A stretch of 64,000 nucleotides of DNA from Escherichia virus TH57: sequence record MT446422.1. One strand, 5' to 3'. Below the pieces are notes generated by a model that did not search any database, had not been told where the DNA came from, and was given only the letters and a program-made list of their open reading frames with translations. Both the position numbers and the translations under genes were made by a program. Positions 108 through 25,918 of this stretch are shown in pieces. The first letter of the stretch is position 1, and each line of letters starts with the position of its first letter.

Positions 108-809
108 TCAGAGATCGTCGAACGAGCTAATCCAGACTCTACGATCTTCCTGGAAGGCAGGCAAGCGCGGCGCACCTAATTCACGCAGACGGTCGCGGTG
201 GATAGCCAGCACCGGCGGCGCGCCTTCTTCATTGCGGCGGTGGAAATGACGTGAGAAGATCAGCAGCGACGAGGCGAACCCGGACGACTGAGGTTTCACA
301 CCGTTGGCCCACACCGGCAACTGGAAGGTGATGCGCCCTTTGATATTGAAAATGCAGTCTGCAGGGAAGTCGGATAACTCGTCAGGCCACCAGCTTTCGC
401 TAGGGGCGTGCTTCGTCAGCAGGCAGATATTTGCGCCGTTGTCGCGCTCCTCCTTCACCTTCGCCATGATATTCAACATCCCGGTGTACGGCTCATCGTC
501 ATGCTCAAACGGACGGCTGTACGGTGGGTTGCCGTAACACCATGCGCCAGCGCCACCGTATTTCAGGGAGTCGCCATGCCAGTCCTGCACCAGCGCGTTG
601 TTTGCCTGGCTGTAGTAGTGGTCGCATTTGGAGTTCTGCCCGTCGGTAAACAGGTCCAGCGCGAACCGGCTTCCGTTGGTAACGAACGCCTCGATGCCAC
701 AAAACTCCAGGTCAGGCGTGCGCCACTGGTCCCCGATCTCTTTGAGGTCGTGAAAGTCCTGCATCTTAATGTCGATCAGCTTTTCCAGGTATGGATTCAT
801 CCGGCTCAT
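108..809 (-). CDS. DNA N6-adenine methyltransferase, phage Dam-like family
   Basis: Track ORF 108..854; NPPY catalytic motif (CYGNPPYS) plus WRTPDLEF and SKCDHYY blocks typical of phage Dam-type MTases; start moved to internal Met (residue 16) that overlaps the stop of the upstream ORF; GC-rich unlike the phage backbone. Confidence 0.55.
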   Translation of the reverse strand: MSRMNPYLEKLIDIKMQDFHDLKEIGDQWRTPDLEFCGIEAFVTNGSRFALDLFTDGQNSKCDHYYSQANNALVQDWHGDSLKYGGAGAWCYGNPPYSRPFEHDDEPYTGMLNIMAKVKEERDNGANICLLTKHAPSESWWPDELSDFPADCIFNIKGRITFQLPVWANGVKPQSSGFASSLLIFSRHFHRRNEEGAPPVLAIHRDRLRELGAPRLPAFQEDRRVWISSFDDL

Positions 810-1051
810 TGACCACCTGCCAGTTTTGCAAGGCGCTCCTCTAACTGCCACCATTCCTGTTTACGGGCATCCGCGCCGCACTGCATGATGTCCACCCGGC
901 ACGGCAGTTTGGTGAGCGTCACAAAGATGCGATTCTCATCGCTGCCGCCTTTGCGGATGATGGCGGTCTGTGCGGCCCACGCCAAAGTGAGCGTCGGGTG
1001 GTTCTTAACCTTGTGCTCGATGCGCTCGCGGAAAGTGATGAAGTTCCCCAT
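806..1051 (-). CDS. hypothetical protein (GC-rich module, coupled to the methyltransferase)
   Basis: 81-aa ORF, same strand and same GC-rich composition, stop overlaps the downstream MTase start; no recognisable motif. Confidence 0.35.
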   Translation of the reverse strand: MGNFITFRERIEHKVKNHPTLTLAWAAQTAIIRKGGSDENRIFVTLTKLPCRVDIMQCGADARKQEWWQLEERLAKLAGGQ

Positions 1052-19383: not shown

Positions 19384-19731
19384 ATGACCAAACAACATGG
19401 ATTAAATATGGAATTACCAATTAAAGCAGTAGGTGAATATATTATTTTGGTTTCTGAGCCAAAGCAAGCTGGCGATGAAGAAACTACGGCATCAGGTATC
19501 GTTATCGGAAAACTCCATCAGGGTGAAATCCCAGAGATGTGTGAAGTATTTTCGATTGGCCCAGATGTTCCTGAAGGTTTCTGTGAAGTAGGTGATTTGA
19601 CTCCTCTTCCGGTTGGCAAGATTGCAAACGTTCCACATCCTCTGGTTGCTCTGGGACTTAAGCAGGCTAAAGAAGTTAAGCAGAAATTTGTGACCTGTCA
19701 TTATAAAGCTGTTCCTTGTCTTTATAAGTAA
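19384..19731 (+). CDS. 31: co-chaperonin gp31 (GroES analogue)
   Basis: [67 protein letters not shown] match T4 gp31. Confidence 0.9.
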
Positions 19732-19740
19732 AATTAGCGT

Positions 19741-19748
19741 TATAAATA
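19741..19748 (+). promoter_or_regulatory. T4 late promoter (TATAAATA)
   Basis: Plus-strand TATAAATA; the first ATG of the track ORF at 19754 is too close to be translated from it, supporting the downstream start. Confidence 0.4.
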
Positions 19749-19888
19749 ATAATATGGATTGGCTGCCGGACCAGTTAGTTACCCGGAGAATCCTAAACGG
19801 TGGACTACAACTGAGAGACTTGCCGAAAGGAAGTGAAATTCAGAAGAACGTGTCCACCAAATATTCACCTCATATTGAGGCTTCTAAA

Positions 19889-20143
19889 ATGTCTTTAAAC
19901 AAACAATTACAACACGCTCTTGAACTGCAACGCACTGCATGGAATAACGGTCACGAAAACTACGGCGCATCTATTGATGTTGAAGCCGAAGCACTGGAAA
20001 TTCTGCAGTATTTCAAACATCTTAACCCGGTACAAACCGACCTTCGCGCTGTACTCGAAGCTAAAGATGAATTGAAATATGCTAAGCCGCTGGCATCTGC
20101 TGCGCGTAAAGCTGTTCGACATTTTGTCGTTACTCTGAAGTAA
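19889..20143 (+). CDS. rIII: putative rIII lysis-inhibition accessory protein
   Basis: 84 aa from Met 46 of track ORF 19754..20143; size and position next to gene 31 fit T4 rIII; synteny and size only. Confidence 0.4.
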   Translation: MSLNKQLQHALELQRTAWNNGHENYGASIDVEAEALEILQYFKHLNPVQTDLRAVLEAKDELKYAKPLASAARKAVRHFVVTLK

Positions 20144-20389
20144 GTTTTAGGTGATTCGCTACCTTAAGTGCGGCTAGAAAATCGAGGAGCCGTCGAACTG
20201 TCTGATTAATGATTTGCGAATCATTATAGTTTTAAGACCCCGGCAGTTTTATGGTGTACCTCTTGAATGTGAATGATGACGGGTTTATGGTTATCCTGGT
20301 CGTTAAATATCCAAAAACCTATGTTCCCTTCGAGGGCTTGCGCAGGCAATGTCAATAAGTCCTGCATTCTATTTTAAAGAGAATTTAAT

Positions 20390-20551
20390 ATGGCTAAGAA
20401 AGAAGTTAAAGTTGTTGATGGCTCCTCCAAACGCGCTGGTTACAAGCGTGCGTCCAACAAGCGAATCAATCAGGTGACTGATAAACTTCAGGCTCGTGCT
20501 CGTGCGGTATTGCGTGCCGATGCAGCTTGCTTTGGTAAGCCGAAAGCATAA
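20390..20551 (+). CDS. small basic protein (53 aa), hypothetical
   Basis: Read from sequence: MAKKEVKVVDGSSKRAGYKRASNKR...; below the track size cutoff; followed at once by a strong terminator; SD weak. Confidence 0.3.
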   Translation: MAKKEVKVVDGSSKRAGYKRASNKRINQVTDKLQARARAVLRADAACFGKPKA

Positions 20552-20556
20552 GTTCA

Positions 20557-20581
20557 GGGGCTCTTCGGAGCCCTTTTTTTT
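20557..20581 (+). terminator. Rho-independent terminator
   Basis: GGGCTC-TTCG-GAGCCC hairpin plus 8-T run. Confidence 0.65.
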
Positions 20582-20594
20582 CTAGGAAAATATT

Positions 20595-20951
20595 ATGAAC
20601 GATAGATACAATCACACGTTTACTACACCGCGTGGAGCATCGTATGCAGCGCCTGGTCTGGAGCCATACAATGCAATTCCGGAACATCATCCTGCTGCAT
20701 ATGTTCCACCAAGCCCTCCGATATACACACCACCTGCGAAACCGTATGACGATGCAATTTATCTTGTCGCTTTCTTAAGTGAAGCTGGTACACAAGACCG
20801 GGGCTGTCAACGTTCTGGTTTGCTTACTGAACTGGAAGCACATAAACGCGCCAGAGAATGGATTGAGACAAATCCAAAGGGTGAAGCTATTGTAATGAAA
20901 GCCAAAAACTTCTATACAGCTGAAGTAACCCATAAAATAATTATCAAATGA
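20595..20951 (+). CDS. hypothetical protein (Pro-rich N-terminal half)
   Basis: 118-aa ORF between two terminators. Confidence 0.4.
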   Translation: MNDRYNHTFTTPRGASYAAPGLEPYNAIPEHHPAAYVPPSPPIYTPPAKPYDDAIYLVAFLSEAGTQDRGCQRSGLLTELEAHKRAREWIETNPKGEAIVMKAKNFYTAEVTHKIIIK

Positions 20952-20976
20952 CTCCTTCGGGAGTCTTTTTTTTTTT
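20950..20976 (+). terminator. Rho-independent terminator
   Basis: GACTCC-TTCG-GGAGTC hairpin plus 11-T run. Confidence 0.7.
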
Positions 20977-20985
20977 CATAAAAGG

Positions 20986-21014
20986 TGTACAACAGGATTT
21001 GCCCAGTGCATAAT
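20986..21014 (+). promoter_or_regulatory. T4-type early promoter (second copy of the 2644-2672 cassette)
   Basis: TGTACA, 17 nt, CATAAT; 27-nt block GCATAATGATTCCATACTGAGTTACAC identical to 2666-2692. Confidence 0.55.
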
Positions 21015-21055
21015 GATTCCATACTGAGTTACACAATAAAACACTGGAGAATAAA

Positions 21056-21424
21056 ATGAAAATCAATCTTAACTCATACATCAAAGGTAAAGACCACGAC
21101 GGTTACAAAGCCATTGAAACTAAAGAGATGCAATGGCACTTGTATAAAGAACAGTTTGAATTTGTTGGTTGCATGACTCCTGAAGGTCCTTCTGATGACT
21201 TCTCTTGGAAAATTATGGTAACAAACTTTTTTACTGGTGATACCTACGAACTGAAAACTATCATAACCGGTAAGATTCGTTGTAAGACCTATGAAGATGA
21301 AGAAACTGGTTATTCTGAAGATGTTACATGGTATCAAAATGGTCGCAATACTGCTGATGATTTGATTGAAAAAATGAAAGCTAAGGGTGAATTAAATTTA
21401 GATAATTGGATTAAAGTCGCATAA
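21056..21424 (+). CDS. hypothetical protein
   Basis: 122-aa ORF, SD GGAGAA. Confidence 0.4.
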   Translation: MKINLNSYIKGKDHDGYKAIETKEMQWHLYKEQFEFVGCMTPEGPSDDFSWKIMVTNFFTGDTYELKTIITGKIRCKTYEDEETGYSEDVTWYQNGRNTADDLIEKMKAKGELNLDNWIKVA

Positions 21425-21428
21425 AACA

Positions 21429-21468
21429 GTTTACTTTGGTACAGGTTATGATATTATAGACCTGTACC
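21429..21468 (+). promoter_or_regulatory. T4-type early promoter with 9-bp perfect inverted repeat across the -10
   Basis: GTTTAC, 17 nt, TATTAT; GGTACAGGT ... ACCTGTACC flank the -10. Confidence 0.45.
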
Positions 21469-21495
21469 AACAAATGAAAACAACTGGAGAATAAA

Positions 21496-21861
21496 ATGAA
21501 CTACATCAACTTTGAACGCAAATATGTTTCTATCAGTGCAGTTGGTTCTAACGAGTATATGAGCTTATGGGAACATAAAAATGGTTCGGTATGTGAAATT
21601 GACCATTGGGTTTCTCCTGATTATGTTTATATGCGATTTGAAAATGGTATCACCCTTTCAATCACTAAAGAAGGTTCTACTTTTAAAATCGCGTTAGATG
21701 ATGATTTCCGTGAACGTGATTTAGGAACTCATCCTTGCTGGAATGGTGTTAATCGCAAGCTTCTGGTTAAAACTTGGATTCGTCACATCCTGAGCAATAA
21801 AGCAAAACCTGAACACCTGGAAGCAATCTTTGATGTAGTTCTTAATGAATTTGATATCTAA
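21496..21861 (+). CDS. hypothetical protein
   Basis: 121-aa ORF, SD GGAGAA. Confidence 0.4.
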   Translation: MNYINFERKYVSISAVGSNEYMSLWEHKNGSVCEIDHWVSPDYVYMRFENGITLSITKEGSTFKIALDDDFRERDLGTHPCWNGVNRKLLVKTWIRHILSNKAKPEHLEAIFDVVLNEFDI

Positions 21862-21899
21862 TCTTAAATGGGGGCGAAAGCCCCTTTGAGGAAAATACT

Positions 21900-22187
21900 A
21901 TGTTTATGACTACTTACTTTGATACACGTAAAAATTTCTGTGAAGTTGTTTTCTCTAAAAAAGGCCCTAATGTTCCTGCTGGGTGTGAACCAACACGCGA
22001 TTCCATTAAGAACTATGTTGATGTAGTTTGTCCACTAGAATTCAGGACTGTTAATGGACGCGATACTCTGGCAATCACCAAGCTTAGACGCGACATTGAT
22101 ATTGACCCAATTGCTGCGCGGGAAATTAATTCATCTGATATTAATGGTAAAAATGTTAAATCACGCGGTTTCCTGACGAGGTTCTAA
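21900..22187 (+). CDS. hypothetical protein
   Basis: 95-aa ORF, SD GAGGAAAA. Confidence 0.4.
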   Translation: MFMTTYFDTRKNFCEVVFSKKGPNVPAGCEPTRDSIKNYVDVVCPLEFRTVNGRDTLAITKLRRDIDIDPIAAREINSSDINGKNVKSRGFLTRF

Positions 22188-22381
22188 TGAAATTATTCTT
22201 ATCACAAACTGTTCAGTTAAAAGGTGTGGGTATTCCTGGAATGATTTCAAAGGTCCTGCCTGCTTTTAAATTCGGGGGTATTGTAATTAAAGAAGCGTAT
22301 TTAGTCTTGTGGGTTGATGGAACTGAAGACCTTCGCATGGGTGGTGAGTTGTCTGTAATCAAATGTTTAAAGCGAGGCTAA
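22187..22381 (+). CDS. hypothetical protein
   Basis: 64-aa ORF with overlapping stop/start. Confidence 0.35.
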   Translation: MKLFLSQTVQLKGVGIPGMISKVLPAFKFGGIVIKEAYLVLWVDGTEDLRMGGELSVIKCLKRG

Positions 22382-22382
22382 T

Positions 22383-22595
22383 ATGTTTAAGAAATTGATT
22401 CAGAAGATTTTGGGCACAGAAATGGTTGAAGTGACTTATCGCGTGACCGACGTAAGTCCATGGGCCCGAAATATTGAACCATATACTAAAACAATTAAAA
22501 TGCTGAAATCTGACGGCGGATTATCTATTAAAGACCGTCTACCTGGTTATGGTCATTGGGCTGATGTAGAGATTATCAGTGTCAAAGATATTTAA
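22383..22595 (+). CDS. hypothetical 70-aa protein, tandem paralog A
   Basis: MFKKLIQKILGTEMVEVTYRVTD...SIKDRLPGYGHW...IISVKDI parallels the next ORF. Confidence 0.45.
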   Translation: MFKKLIQKILGTEMVEVTYRVTDVSPWARNIEPYTKTIKMLKSDGGLSIKDRLPGYGHWADVEIISVKDI

Positions 22596-22604
22596 GGAAC
22601 CTTC

Positions 22605-22817
22605 ATGATTAATAAATTATTTAAAAAGCTGTTTGGCTTGGAAATGGTTGAAGTGACTTATCGTGTTATTGATTTATCACCGCCATATGCTTGCGATGAA
22701 GATGCTATTAAAACTGTTGTTATGCGAAAAACATATCGCGGGCGGTCAATTAAAGAAAGATTGCCAGACCATGGCATGTGGTATGCAACCAAGATTATCA
22801 GTGTCAAAGATGTCTGA
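22605..22817 (+). CDS. hypothetical 70-aa protein, tandem paralog B
   Basis: MINKLFKKLFGLEMVEVTYRVID...SIKERLPDHGMW...IISVKDV. Confidence 0.45.
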   Translation: MINKLFKKLFGLEMVEVTYRVIDLSPPYACDEDAIKTVVMRKTYRGRSIKERLPDHGMWYATKIISVKDV

Positions 22818-23268
22818 GTTAGAAATCAGAAGTAATTTTCCGTGGCCATCATGTGCATTAAGTAACTTTGCTAAATGGCCTTTTGTTATGGAGGGTATCC
22901 AGTTTGGAGGTCTTGAAGGCTTCCTACAAGGATGCAAGGTGAGAAATGTTGAACAACAAAAACGTATATTTGGGATGTCCGGATTGGCCGCCCAGCAAAG
23001 TGGAAGAGCTTATGCAAGAGCTGCGGACCGTGGGACGCTTTTCTGGTGTGGAATTCCCTTTTCAAGATACTCTACAGCATGGAAAGAGTTGTATACAAAT
23101 GCATATTTTGAAGCAGCGCTCCAAAACAGAGGGTTTCGCGATGCGTTACAATCCACAAAAGGCAAAGTTTTAAAGCATTCGATGGCAAGTCACCTTACTG
23201 TTCATGATACAATATTGACTGAACAAGAATTTATTGACATACTTAACCAATTGAGAGATGCATTATGA
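22810..23268 (+). CDS. NADAR-like (YbiA-like) domain protein, candidate ADP-ribose/N-glycoside hydrolase
   Basis: 152 aa from Met 50 of track ORF 22663..23268; LSNFAKWPF, EGFLQGCK and YFEAALQNRGFRDALQST resemble YbiA/NADAR blocks as recalled; start overlaps upstream stop. Confidence 0.45.
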   Translation: MSELEIRSNFPWPSCALSNFAKWPFVMEGIQFGGLEGFLQGCKVRNVEQQKRIFGMSGLAAQQSGRAYARAADRGTLFWCGIPFSRYSTAWKELYTNAYFEAALQNRGFRDALQSTKGKVLKHSMASHLTVHDTILTEQEFIDILNQLRDAL

Positions 23269-24089
23269 AACCCGTTATTTTAACAGATATTGATGGCGTA
23301 TGTTTGTCATGGCAGTCTGGCTTGCCTTATTTCGCTCAAAAATATAATTTACCCCTGGAACACATCCTTAAGATGATTCAGGATGAAAAATTTGTGACCC
23401 CTGGTAAACTTTTCAATTGTGATGAAGAGTTAGGCGCGCAGTTAATTGAAAAATATAACTGTTCGGACTTTATTCGCTATTTGTCTCCTTATGCGGATGC
23501 ATTAAGGGTTATTAATAACATTAAAGAGCAATATGATTTTGTGGCTGTTACAGCACTGGGTGATTCTATTGATGCTCGCCTGAATCGTCAATTCAACCTG
23601 AATGCTTTGTTCCCTGGGGCATTTAAAGAAGTGATGATGTGTGGTCATACAGCCTCTAAAGAGGAGTTATTTCAGAAGGCAAAAGACAAATATAATGTCA
23701 TTTGTTATATTGATGACCTTGCGCACCATTGCGACCATGCGAGTGAAATTCTTGAGGTTCCTGTTTATTGGATGGCCCGCGGCGAACGTGATGCTATTCC
23801 TAAAACAGCTTCCAAAGTTTTTAATTGGGACGATGTTGCTGGACAGCTTAAACTGAAACACAAAGATGAACCGGTCAAACCAGAATTCACCCCAGATGAA
23901 CTCCGTAAACTGGAAGAGCTGTTTCGTGAAACTCGCCGTCTTCAACAACAAATGCAACAAGGCTGGCAACCAGGTCAACCATGGACTCCTGGTTATAATC
24001 CAGCATATCCATATCAATATGGCCAGCGTGTGGGTACTGGTATTGAATATTGGTACAATCAACCGACCGGTGGCCAAGGGGGTAATTGA
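23265..24089 (+). CDS. HAD-superfamily phosphatase-like protein with Gln/Pro/Tyr-rich C-terminal tail
   Basis: 274 aa; N-terminal HAD motif I ILTDIDGV; C-terminal low-complexity QQQMQQGWQPGQPWTPGYNPAYPYQYGQ; ATGA overlap with NADAR-like gene. Confidence 0.45.
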   Translation: MKPVILTDIDGVCLSWQSGLPYFAQKYNLPLEHILKMIQDEKFVTPGKLFNCDEELGAQLIEKYNCSDFIRYLSPYADALRVINNIKEQYDFVAVTALGDSIDARLNRQFNLNALFPGAFKEVMMCGHTASKEELFQKAKDKYNVICYIDDLAHHCDHASEILEVPVYWMARGERDAIPKTASKVFNWDDVAGQLKLKHKDEPVKPEFTPDELRKLEELFRETRRLQQQMQQGWQPGQPWTPGYNPAYPYQYGQRVGTGIEYWYNQPTGGQGGN

Positions 24090-24367
24090 TGTTTGTCGTT
24101 CATACTATTTCTGATTATGGTCCTACTACTACCATGGATTATGGCCATGTTAATCAGTTTATTCGTCATGTGAATCATGATTACTCGTTTGATATTAACC
24201 CAGCCAAAGACCATCCGGTTTGGCGTGAATGCGTTGAGCAAGGGTTTATCTATGTTCACTTTATGTCTAAGTTTAAACCAGATGGGCGAATGAGATTTGT
24301 GTTCTCTTATCATAAGCGTCTGGATTTGCTTTTGGAAGATGTGGCATATAATAGAGCCAACGACTAA
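24086..24367 (+). CDS. hypothetical protein
   Basis: 93-aa ORF coupled between the HAD-like gene and ligase. Confidence 0.4.
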   Translation: MMFVVHTISDYGPTTTMDYGHVNQFIRHVNHDYSFDINPAKDHPVWRECVEQGFIYVHFMSKFKPDGRMRFVFSYHKRLDLLLEDVAYNRAND

Positions 24368-24370
24368 GAG

Positions 24371-25918
24371 GTGATTATGATTTTAGATATTTTAAATGAA
24401 ATTGCTGCAACCGATTCCACTAAAGAGAAACAAGCTATCCTGGAATCGTATTCTGACAATGAAACCCTTAAACGCGTGTATCGTTTGACATATTCCAAAG
24501 GCATCCAGTTCTATATCAAGAAATGGCCAAAACCTGGGACAACGACTCAAAGCTTTGGTATGTTGAATATCGATGATATGCTTGACTTTATCGAATTTAC
24601 ATTGGCCTCTCGCAAATTGACAGGTAATGCTGCAATCGAGGAATTATCTGGCTATATTGCTGATGGTAAAAAAGCAGATGTTGAAGTTCTTCGCCGTGTG
24701 ATGATGCGTGACCTGGAATGCGGGGCATCCGTATCAATTGCAAATAAGGTTTGGAAAGGTTTAATTCCTGAACAACCGCAGATGCTTGCTTCTTCCTATG
24801 ATGAAGCCGGTATTGCCAAGAACATTAAGTTCCCGGCCTTTGCGCAATTGAAAGCCGACGGTGCTCGGTGTTTTGCAGAAGTTCGTGGCGATGAGTTGGA
24901 TGATGTTCGATTGTTATCCCGAGCTGGCAACGAATACCTCAAGCTTGACCTCCTTAAAAAGGAATTAATTGAAGCCACCCGTGAAGCGCGTGAGAGACAC
25001 CCTGAGGGCGTTTTAATTGATGGTGAGTTAGTATACCATGAACAGAAAGTAGCTCCCCAGAATGACGGTTTGGGCTTCCTTTTTGACGATATGCCTGAGC
25101 TTAGCAAGGCAAAAGAATTCGAGGAATTCGCGGAATCAAGAACCTTTTCAAATGGTCTGGCAAACAAATCATTGAAAGGAACTATTTCTGCAGCAGAAGC
25201 TTCTTGCATGAAATTCCAGGTTTGGGATTATGTTCCGCTGATTGAAGTCTATTCTGATGTTAAGATTCTCAATCCGTTGAAATACGATGTGCGTTTTGCT
25301 GTTCTGGAAAAAATGATTGCAGATAACGTGGTGCTGCACGGTTTTGACCGCATGATTCTGATTGAAAACCATGTTGTTAACAATCTCGATGAAGCGAAGG
25401 TTATCTATAAGAAATATGTGGATGAAGGTCTTGAAGGTATTATCCTTAAGAACATGGCATCGATTTGGGAAAACAAGCGCTCCAAGAACTTGTACAAGTT
25501 CAAAGAAGTAATTGACATTGCAATGGAAATCATTGGATATTACGAGCACGATAAAGACCCGAATAAGATTGGCGGTGTTGTGCTTCGTTCTTCTTGTGGT
25601 AAGATTACGAATAACTGTGGTTCTGGTTTTAAAGACACAACTCAAGTCAAAGATAAGAAAACCAAAAAATGGGTTACTATTCCGATTGAGAAGCGTCATG
25701 AAATGGACCGTGAAGCCTTGATGGTTAAAGCTCGTAAAGGTGAATTGGTTGGAATGATTGCTGACTGTGAATGTAATGGTTGGGTGACTTCCGAGACTCG
25801 TAAAGATAATACGGTTGCATTGTTCCTGCCGATTATCAAAGGGTTCCGTTTCGATAAAGACCATGCAGACACATTCGAAGATGTATTTGGCGACTGGTCA
25901 AAGACTGGGTTAAAATAA
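24371..25918 (+). CDS. 30: ATP-dependent DNA ligase
   Basis: 515 aa; ILNEIAATDSTKEKQAILE, adenylation motif FAQLKADGARCFAEV, VLIDGELV, GLEGIILK; long stretches match T4 gp30. Confidence 0.95.
   Translation: MIMILDILNEIAATDSTKEKQAILESYSDNETLKRVYRLTYSKGIQFYIKKWPKPGTTTQSFGMLNIDDMLDFIEFTLASRKLTGNAAIEELSGYIADGKKADVEVLRRVMMRDLECGASVSIANKVWKGLIPEQPQMLASSYDEAGIAKNIKFPAFAQLKADGARCFAEVRGDELDDVRLLSRAGNEYLKLDLLKKELIEATREARERHPEGVLIDGELVYHEQKVAPQNDGLGFLFDDMPELSKAKEFEEFAESRTFSNGLANKSLKGTISAAEASCMKFQVWDYVPLIEVYSDVKILNPLKYDVRFAVLEKMIADNVVLHGFDRMILIENHVVNNLDEAKVIYKKYVDEGLEGIILKNMASIWENKRSKNLYKFKEVIDIAMEIIGYYEHDKDPNKIGGVVLRSSCGKITNNCGSGFKDTTQVKDKKTKKWVTIPIEKRHEMDREALMVKARKGELVGMIADCECNGWVTSETRKDNTVALFLPIIKGFRFDKDHADTFEDVFGDWSKTGLK

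Follow-up and report, generated by a model that had tools for sequence, protein, structure and literature searches.

The rIII-to-gene 30 region of Escherichia virus TH57 carries the T4 30.5–30.8 gene block together with the variable gene 30.6A

We analyzed five open reading frames (ORFs) located at positions 20595–22381 on the plus strand of a 64,000-nucleotide stretch of DNA from Escherichia virus TH57 (MT446422.1), referred to below as the window. Positions 20100–22700 had 99.2% DNA identity with Escherichia virus TH54 and about 91% with Shigella phage SP18 (Gaprivervirus), and 897 phage records matched this interval; by this DNA similarity, the window is assigned to a T-even, Gaprivervirus-like phage. 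The plus-strand gene order around the cluster was dCMP deaminase, 31.2, 31.1, gp31, rIII, 30.9, the five ORFs, two ORFs of 70 aa, 30.3 (Pfam family Phage_30_3), 30.2, 30.1, and DNA ligase gp30, matching the order cd-31-rIII-30.9...30.1-30 of phage T4. A preliminary description had reported five ORFs of 64–122 aa in the rIII-to-30 region; all five were present exactly at these positions, and the location was confirmed as lying between rIII/30.9 and two copies of 30.4, which are followed by 30.3, 30.2, 30.1, and ligase gene 30. BLASTP against T4 proteins aligned four of the ORFs with T4 30.8, 30.7, 30.6, and 30.5 (40, 80, 78, and 75% identity, respectively) and gave no match for the remaining one, 30.6A. 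The same five ORFs are labeled gp30.6A, gp30.8, gp30.7, gp30.6, and gp30.5 in the record of SP18. The cluster is the T4 30.5–30.8 block plus the known variable gene 30.6A, an already known and ordinary T-even locus; it is not a new gene cluster and does not merit flagging as a discovery.

That the five ORFs are real genes follows from purifying selection and from their presence in an independent assembly. The ratio of nonsynonymous to synonymous substitution rates (dN/dS), calculated against orthologues in SP18, C6, JS09, and T4, was 0.05–0.35 across all five ORFs, and on an independent 95.9-kb Logan contig, 30.6A encoded exactly this protein and the genes, both copies of 30.4 among them, stood in the same order. 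The products were soluble proteins of 7–14 kDa without a recognizable enzymatic motif; neither transmembrane or hydrophobic segments nor catalytic motifs were seen in any of the five. PHROG families 1507, 1582, 2153, 1690, and 17531 were assigned to the proteins of the cluster.

The first gene, 30.6A (20595–20951, plus strand), encoded a protein of 118 aa with 92% identity to gp30.6A of SP18 and a dN/dS value of 0.11. A Pro/Tyr-rich N-terminus was followed by a conserved C-terminal domain of about 65 aa with the motif GTQDRGCQRSGL. The protein belonged to phrog_17531 (E = 1e-25 over residues 44–109), and in the motif GTxDRxCxRSGL the alignment columns G65, T66, D68, R69, C71, R73, S74, G75, and L76 were invariant. 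The C-terminal domain (YLVAFLSEAGTQDRGCQRSGL...NPxGEA) was shared with gp30.6A of phages TuIa, SP18, and Mosigvirus JS09. The full-length protein was found in only 5 of 50,697 phage records, while another 115, mostly Mosigviruses, contained the C-terminal domain only; an exhaustive HMMER search of 1.84 billion representatives yielded four clusters with this domain, all of the same family. Gene 30.6A was carried by the window, TH54, SP18, phage 212, and C6 and was missing from EAWsc9, T4, and most relatives. In EAWsc9 and T4, the terminator of 30.9 runs directly to the promoter of 30.8, with no 30.6A in between.

The position of the 30.6A domain also differed between genera. Unlike gp30.6A of the window, which stands between 30.9 and 30.8 beside an intact 30.6, the Mosigvirus version is a 204-aa protein with a longer and different N-terminal part, found in JS09 between 30.7 and 30.5, that is, in the usual slot of 30.6. 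Karamvirus CkP1 carries a 152-aa version after 30.9. Derivation of JS09 gp30.6A from 30.6 was considered and rejected (BLASTP E = 2). The translation-initiation cassette of 30.6A (AGGAAAATATTATG, 20584–20597, plus strand, repeat family D15) recurred with 13 of 14 nt before 30.6 at 21889–21902, and the same 14-mer stands before 30.6 of T4. The sharing of one initiation cassette by 30.6A and 30.6 fits gene movement between the two slots.

Gene 30.8 (21056–21424, plus strand) encoded an acidic protein of 122 aa (isoelectric point 4.9) with an all-beta domain followed by a C-terminal helix. It was a member of Pfam family PF06019 (Phage_30_8; E = 4e-44, 149.9 bits against a cut-off of 25), its residues 2–121 covering profile positions 3–123 of 124. 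Identity to T4 30.8 was 40% (E = 1e-19), and the gene was nearer to the alleles of Mosigvirus and Dhakavirus (89–97% identity) than to that of T4. In one HIDEN-SEQ comparison, insertions in T4 30.8 had a log2 fold change of 3.22 (about 9-fold up), which was not significant (p = 0.19, adjusted p = 1.0).

Gene 30.7 (21496–21861, plus strand) encoded a 121-aa protein with a predicted seven-stranded sheet and two helices, the 5' 200 nt of the gene being a divergent recombination patch. The protein matched Pfam family PF06919 (Phage_T4_Gp30_7) over profile positions 1–118 of 118 (E = 1e-48, 164 bits against a cut-off of 27) and was 80% identical to T4 30.7; this gene was found in 994 phage records. 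Its 23-nt translation-initiation cassette (AAACAACTGGAGAATAAAATGAA, 21478–21500, plus strand, repeat family D4) had a copy of 91% identity before 30.8 at 21038–21060. We considered 30.8 and 30.7 as tandem paralogues in view of the shared initiation cassette and similar N-termini, and rejected this by hhalign (probability 0.1%). Two natural deletions were met at this locus. In metagenome protein P0057 from ENA, the N-terminal ~82 residues of gp30.7 continue in frame into the C-terminal portion of gp30.3; this implies a loss, at an RDLGT/DRGT microhomology, of 30.6, 30.5, 30.4, and half of 30.3 (21496–23268 relative to the window). Phage G2285 lacked 30.8, 30.6, and most of 30.7 and 30.5.

Gene 30.6 (21900–22187, plus strand) encoded a basic protein of 95 aa (isoelectric point 9.2), which belonged to phrog_2153 (E = 1e-45, positions 1–95 of 95) and had 78% identity to T4 30.6. 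The identical gene of the Logan contig is annotated with Pfam family PF26902 (Phage_T4_Y12K). Residues ~21–34 of gp30.6 (21960–22001) formed a short hypervariable patch, KGPNVPAGCEPTRD here versus KAPKDLPAHLQLTSE in T4, located between an invariant 20-residue N-terminus and the conserved core; SP18 and the window had 19 nt differences within one 50-nt bin at this patch, which is possibly a surface loop under diversifying selection. The last gene, 30.5 (22187–22381, plus strand), encoded 64 aa, its start overlapping the stop codon of 30.6 (TAATG). It was an orthologue of T4 30.5 (75% identity over 63 of 64 residues, E = 2e-31; phrog_1690), with 16 invariant columns across eight phages.

The cluster had been described as uncharacterized, which is accurate for four of its genes only: no function of 30.6A, 30.8, 30.7, or 30.6 is on record in the literature searched by gene name and accession. 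The 30.x genes are at the same time a standard named T4 block. Four of the five ORFs match T4 30.x genes, and 30.5 is the only one with a described activity. T4 30.5 co-purifies with Ppk, the polyphosphate kinase of the host, and also activates bNACHT11, an NLR-related sensor that T4 evades when 30.5 is deleted together with the T4 homologues of T2 gp6 and gp57; CoaA and GlpK are bound by two further small T-even proteins (bioRxiv 10.1101/2024.12.17.629029). T4 30.4–30.8 are classed as 'early-RNA_early-Protein' (PMC9697503 supplement), and 30.1–30.9 are 'Non-essential' in HIDEN-SEQ transposon sequencing (preprint). CRISPRi-ART classed the T4 30.x genes as 'Not Fit', except for 30.6, which was 'Semi-Fit'. 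The HIDEN-SEQ preprint also identifies 30.3 as AdfN, a NADAR enzyme countering DarTG1. Genes 30.5–30.8 are not among the hits that its main text names, the conditions of which were RexAB, RnlAB, CBASS, DarTG1, DarTG2, minimal medium, and clinical isolates.

Profile and structure searches, which the preliminary description had proposed, recovered family names and added no function. Scans of the five proteins against Pfam and PHROGs returned only self-named families of unknown function, and NCBIfam gave no match. No PADLOC family was matched by any of 10 proteins at E ≤ 1; PADLOC models defence rather than anti-defence. In single-sequence and profile searches of the PDB with all five proteins, nothing significant was found, the best hit (E = 0.022, to a WD40 repeat) being taken as chance. 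The predicted structure of 30.8 was confident and that of 30.7 fair; both were small beta-rich domains without an enzyme-like PDB match, and a Foldseek search of BFVD with gp30.8 found family members only.

The five ORFs had also been said to be separated by strong terminators and promoter-early stem-loop (PeSL) cassettes. This holds for the left half of the cluster only. An intrinsic terminator after 30.9 (20556–20581, plus strand; repeat family D6) consisted of AGGGGCUC-UUCG-GAGCCCU followed by U8, with an 8-bp stem at 20556–20575 (−13.6 kcal/mol), and preceded the AGGA and ATG of 30.6A. Its 8 pairs were kept in nine T-even phages, five of them with compensatory changes and none broken. No promoter was found between this terminator and the start of 30.6A; expression of 30.6A must, therefore, rely on read-through of an apparently strong terminator. 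A second intrinsic terminator (20950–20976, plus strand; repeat family D6; z = −2.4), GACUCC-UUCG-GGAGUC followed by U11, overlapped the stop codon of 30.6A with its 6-bp stem (20950–20965), the sequence of which is also that of the 30.9 terminator core in T4. It was followed by a putative, degenerate early promoter of 30.8 (20986–21014, plus strand), TGTACA-N17-CATAAT, which agreed at 10 of 12 positions with TTTACW-N17-TAYWAT and was followed by GGAG and ATG. This promoter was kept in the relatives, which have GTTTACA at −35.

Gene 30.7 was preceded by a predicted T-even early promoter of consensus sequence (21429–21457, plus strand), GTTTACT-N16-TATTAT, a perfect match of a kind found 5 times in the window versus 0.07 expected. 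It was kept in SP18, EAWsc9, C6, JS09, and T4 and was about 91% identical to that of T4. An inverted repeat without a T-run was embedded in this promoter rather than forming a stem-loop upstream of it (21438–21468; no strand assigned); it had 9-bp arms GGTACAGGT/ACCTGTACC and extended from the spacer to about +5 (−17.4 kcal/mol, z = −5.4). In this palindrome, GGTACAGG/CCTGTACC, the 8-nt arm cores were invariant in six phages of four genera (the window, SP18, EAWsc9, C6, JS09, and T4). Its role may be that of an operator or, in read-through transcripts, of an RNA-processing hairpin; no covariation that would choose between the two was found in the six phages.

The claimed insulation fails in the right half of the cluster, where a single hairpin precedes 30.6 and the genes from 30.6 to gene 30 are contiguous. 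This GC-rich GAAA-tetraloop hairpin between 30.7 and 30.6 (21870–21885, plus strand; z = −3.5) had neither a T-run nor a promoter and marked the beginning of the packed block. When the phages were compared by individual folds, the hairpin position was occupied in 9 of 11, with differing stem sequences. In the minimum-energy fold of 21862–21899, the hairpin was extended by pairing of UCUUAA with UUGAGG; the extended form, which also occurs in C6 and JS09 and not in T4, would sequester the Shine–Dalgarno sequence of 30.6, so translational control of 30.6 is possible. We failed to find promoters before 30.6 or 30.5. Genes 30.6, 30.5, both copies of 30.4, 30.3, 30.2, 30.1, and gene 30 were packed with gaps of −5 to +9 nt; 30.6, 30.5, and the first copy of 30.4 are uninsulated, as 30.6 and 30.5 overlap by 1 nt and the next gap is 1 nt. 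A generic scan of the window revealed 16 promoter-like sites (14.0 ± 3.7 expected) and 7 terminator-like sites (3.9 ± 2.0 expected), that is, no enrichment; conservation is the stronger evidence for the intergenic elements.

PeSL cassettes of T4-type phages (Arbiol et al. 2010, PMC2839356; Comeau et al. 2014) consist of a stem-loop terminator, an early sigma-70-type promoter, a Shine–Dalgarno sequence, and ATG, located in a variable region beside an ORF insertion or deletion. Recombination between flanking cassettes into excised mini-circles, assayed by inverse PCR on infected cells in PMC2839356, is a further part of the PeSL concept. The 30.6A–30.8 spacer, with its putative promoter, fits this layout of elements, and so does the ancestral 30.9–30.8 spacer of T4 and EAWsc9; within the cluster, the stem-loop terminator was found in the appropriate position in the 30.6A–30.8 spacer only. 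The other junctions differ from a PeSL: a terminator without a promoter precedes 30.6A, a promoter with an internal palindrome precedes 30.7, and a hairpin alone precedes 30.6. The repeats flanking the 30.6A insert (20567–20590 and 20960–20983) are likewise not whole PeSLs; each consists of a hairpin 3' arm and a T-run.

The cassette-like organization had been taken to suggest modular acquisition, which the comparison of relatives supports for one gene and for parts of others. Insertion, deletion, or replacement of ORFs between close relatives was seen in the indel of 30.6A and at the edge of the patch in 30.7. Comparison of the sequences shows 30.6A as a rare indel and supports modular exchange of this gene. 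Identity to close relatives was mosaic: the intergenic cassettes around 30.7 were 97–100% identical to those of three close relatives (SP18, EAWsc9, and phage 212), whereas the gene itself had 85–88% identity to all five phages compared. The divergence was concentrated in 21502–21701 (about 20% divergent), with a sharp left edge at the start codon coinciding with the promoter/initiation cassette. Such sub-genic recombination patches also support exchange, and the pattern is in accord with the published PeSL model, although the elements of this region are mostly partial cassettes. At the same time, 30.8, 30.7, 30.6, and 30.5 were syntenic across genera; this set looks like backbone accessory genes, apparently inherited vertically rather than acquired recently, because it has the same order in T4, SP18, C6, and others.

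The closest known counterpart is T4 30.8–30.5 (NP_049822 to NP_049819). There, the genes are arranged identically, in order and strand, with respect to rIII, 30.9, 30.4, 30.3, and ligase, and the early promoter of 30.7 and the hairpins recur. Unlike T4, the window has 30.6A and a second copy of 30.4, and its 30.8 is strongly diverged. The kinase binders that trigger bNACHT11 (T2 gp6 with CoaA, T2 gp57 with GlpK, and T4 30.5 with Ppk) resemble the cluster in that gp30.5 is an orthologue of one of them and the other four proteins appear to be similarly small, early, and non-essential; unlike members of a single family, these small proteins have no sequence or detectable fold relationship with one another. 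T4 30.3/AdfN belongs to the same locus, and 30.3 of the window is 84% identical to it; AdfN, unlike the five cluster proteins, which lack catalytic motifs, is an enzyme, and 30.3 lies outside the cluster interval.

The interpretation that we consider probable is that this cluster, which forms the usual 30.9-to-30.5 part of the rIII–gene 30 variable region, encodes early, dispensable, host-directed binders and was diversified at short regulatory sequences. In T4, the orthologues of four of the genes are transcribed and translated early and can be dispensed with on laboratory E. coli. The region diversifies via homologous recombination at terminator hairpins with T-runs, early promoters, and Shine–Dalgarno/ATG cassettes, and such recombination put 30.6A between 30.9 and 30.8 and replaced the first 200 nt of 30.7. 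By homology with T4 30.5, gp30.5 would bind host Ppk and could be sensed by NLR-like bNACHT11 receptors. Analogy with this protein and the genomic context suggest that, within minutes of the start of infection, the other four may bind host proteins stoichiometrically, either metabolic enzymes or components of immunity, and that each would give a host-specific advantage rather than a core function. Host-directed binding is the best-supported mechanism because the proteins are small and without transmembrane segments or catalytic motifs, because the T4 orthologues of four of them are early and dispensable, and because of the case of T4 30.5. The beta-rich models of 30.8 and 30.7, with no enzyme-like match in the PDB, and the adjacent anti-DarTG1 gene 30.3/AdfN also speak for binders; the predicted promoters of 30.7 and 30.8 count for early expression, and the natural deletions in phage G2285 and in the 30.7::30.3 fusion P0057 count for dispensability. 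Several points weigh on the other side. Binding by 30.6A, 30.8, 30.7, and 30.6 is proposed by analogy, and the Ppk/bNACHT11 data, which come from a preprint (bioRxiv 10.1101/2024.12.17.629029), concern the 75% identical T4 30.5. Genes 30.5–30.8 are not among the hits named in the main text of HIDEN-SEQ. Expression of 30.6A would need the read-through noted above, the canonical PeSL layout was found in one of four intergenic regions only, and the generic promoter/terminator scan gave no enrichment.

The main rival is a narrower claim about targets, which overlaps with the preceding interpretation: the stretch would be a counter-defence island, in which each small protein inhibits one anti-phage system and variability reflects an arms race. 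The proximity of 30.3/AdfN, a proven anti-DarTG1 factor 430 nt downstream, the sensing of 30.5 by an immune receptor, and the strong variation in gene content between genera speak for it, as do the fast evolution of 30.8 (40% identity to T4), the variable patches in 30.7 and 30.6, and the finding that orphan T4 genes such as nrdC.1 proved to be defence inhibitors (HIDEN-SEQ preprint). We regard this explanation as possible and less likely than host-directed binding in general: the genes that were named as conditionally essential under six defence/medium conditions or for uropathogenic isolates do not include 30.5–30.8, and Ppk, the sole known partner of 30.5, is a metabolic kinase and not a defence protein. 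The lack of PADLOC matches for the cluster points the same way and is weak evidence because that database models defence, not anti-defence.

Independent acquisition of every one of the five ORFs as an insulated module that has a terminator and a promoter of its own is very unlikely. Although 30.6A behaves as this explanation expects and PeSL-mediated shuffling is documented in T4-type phages, the T4 order of 30.8, 30.7, 30.6, and 30.5 in several genera contradicts independent acquisition, and the occurrence of 30.7 in so many phage records argues against it. Moreover, the genes from 30.6 to gene 30 are packed contiguously, with no element separating 30.6 from 30.5 or 30.5 from 30.4; the junction of 30.7 and 30.6 has a hairpin only, and 30.6A has no promoter. 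The GenBank record of EAWsc9 labels the 30.8 orthologue as an Imm63-type immunity protein of a polymorphic-toxin system, an assignment we find highly improbable and rejected: PF06019 and no Imm63 was found in gp30.8 by a Pfam scan at E ≤ 1, 38 of 38 gp30.8 homologues carry PF06019 only, and no cognate toxin gene adjoins 30.8. That some of the ORFs are chance open frames, with RNA hairpins and promoters as the functional elements, is scarcely credible. Intergenic elements are indeed conserved as well as or better than some genes, as in the case of the 30.7 promoter (about 91% versus T4) and gp30.8 (40% at the amino acid level), but the dN/dS values are well below 1 for all five ORFs, curated Pfam and PHROG families exist for the cluster proteins, and the T4 orthologues of 30.8, 30.7, 30.6, and 30.5 were detected as early proteins (30.6A has no T4 orthologue).

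A joint scheme, which we consider rather doubtful, would combine a mobile gp30.6A cassette, 30.5–30.8 proteins neutralizing different host enzymes, and a 30.7 palindrome serving as an operator. According to it, gp30.6A may be a host-targeting or counter-defence cassette moving between two fixed slots, one after 30.9 and the other at the position of 30.6 after 30.7, and the junction of tetraloop hairpin plus AGGAAAATAYTATG may be a portable recombination and expression adaptor for it. The 30.5–30.8 proteins may each neutralize a host enzyme of their own, Ppk in the case of 30.5, and thereby become triggers of NLR-like sensors, and the invariant palindrome within the promoter of 30.7 may serve an unknown regulator as its operator.

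Several observations concern the neighboring sequence. The tandem 70-aa genes (22383–22595 and 22605–22817) were both homologues of 30.4 (phrog_2042). The first copy was 96–97% identical to the single 30.4 of EAWsc9 and C6, and the second had 91% identity with the 30.4 gene that phage 212 carries as a single copy. The two copies matched each other well in DNA at the gene ends only (79% in the initial 62 nt and 89% in the final 27 nt); by these alignments, the pair looks like two stacked alleles and not like a recent local duplication. The ORF of rIII as listed (19754–20143) encodes 129 aa, T4 rIII (82 aa) aligns to residues 50–129 only, and rIII is a protein of ~84 aa in other records; the listed ORF is probably over-extended at its 5' end, with the start likely at the ATG at 19889. 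The 246-nt spacer between rIII and 30.9 (20144–20389) contained no credible ORF, Rfam match, or consensus early promoter; it had 88–95% identity among Gaprivervirus, Dhakavirus, and Mosigvirus relatives, and a gap of similar size is present in T4. An Rfam scan of 19500–24500 at E ≤ 1 gave no match, and no tRNAs were found within the window.

At the left end of the window, positions 1–1131 (57% GC) had Serratia phage JS26, a non-T4 phage of 64 kb, as their sole match (80.8% identity across the full 1100 nt) and contained an ORF for a Dam-type N6-adenine methyltransferase (108–854, minus strand; PF05869). Homology to T-even phages begins at about 1131, within a 5'-truncated gene 59 followed by gene 32. 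Thus, unrelated sequences are joined at the left end of the window, be it through a chimeric assembly, concatenated records, or a real insertion.

The residual value of the locus lies in four conserved T-even proteins without an assigned function, three of which (30.8, 30.7, and 30.6) have orthologues made early in T4. The four adjoin the anti-defence gene 30.3/AdfN and 30.5, which binds Ppk and trips an NLR-like sensor. The indel of 30.6A offers a clean case from nature in which a gene was gained or lost at repeated terminator sequences. It backs the published PeSL model in a further T-even genus, where partial cassettes—a hairpin with a T-run, or a Shine–Dalgarno sequence with ATG—appear to be enough.

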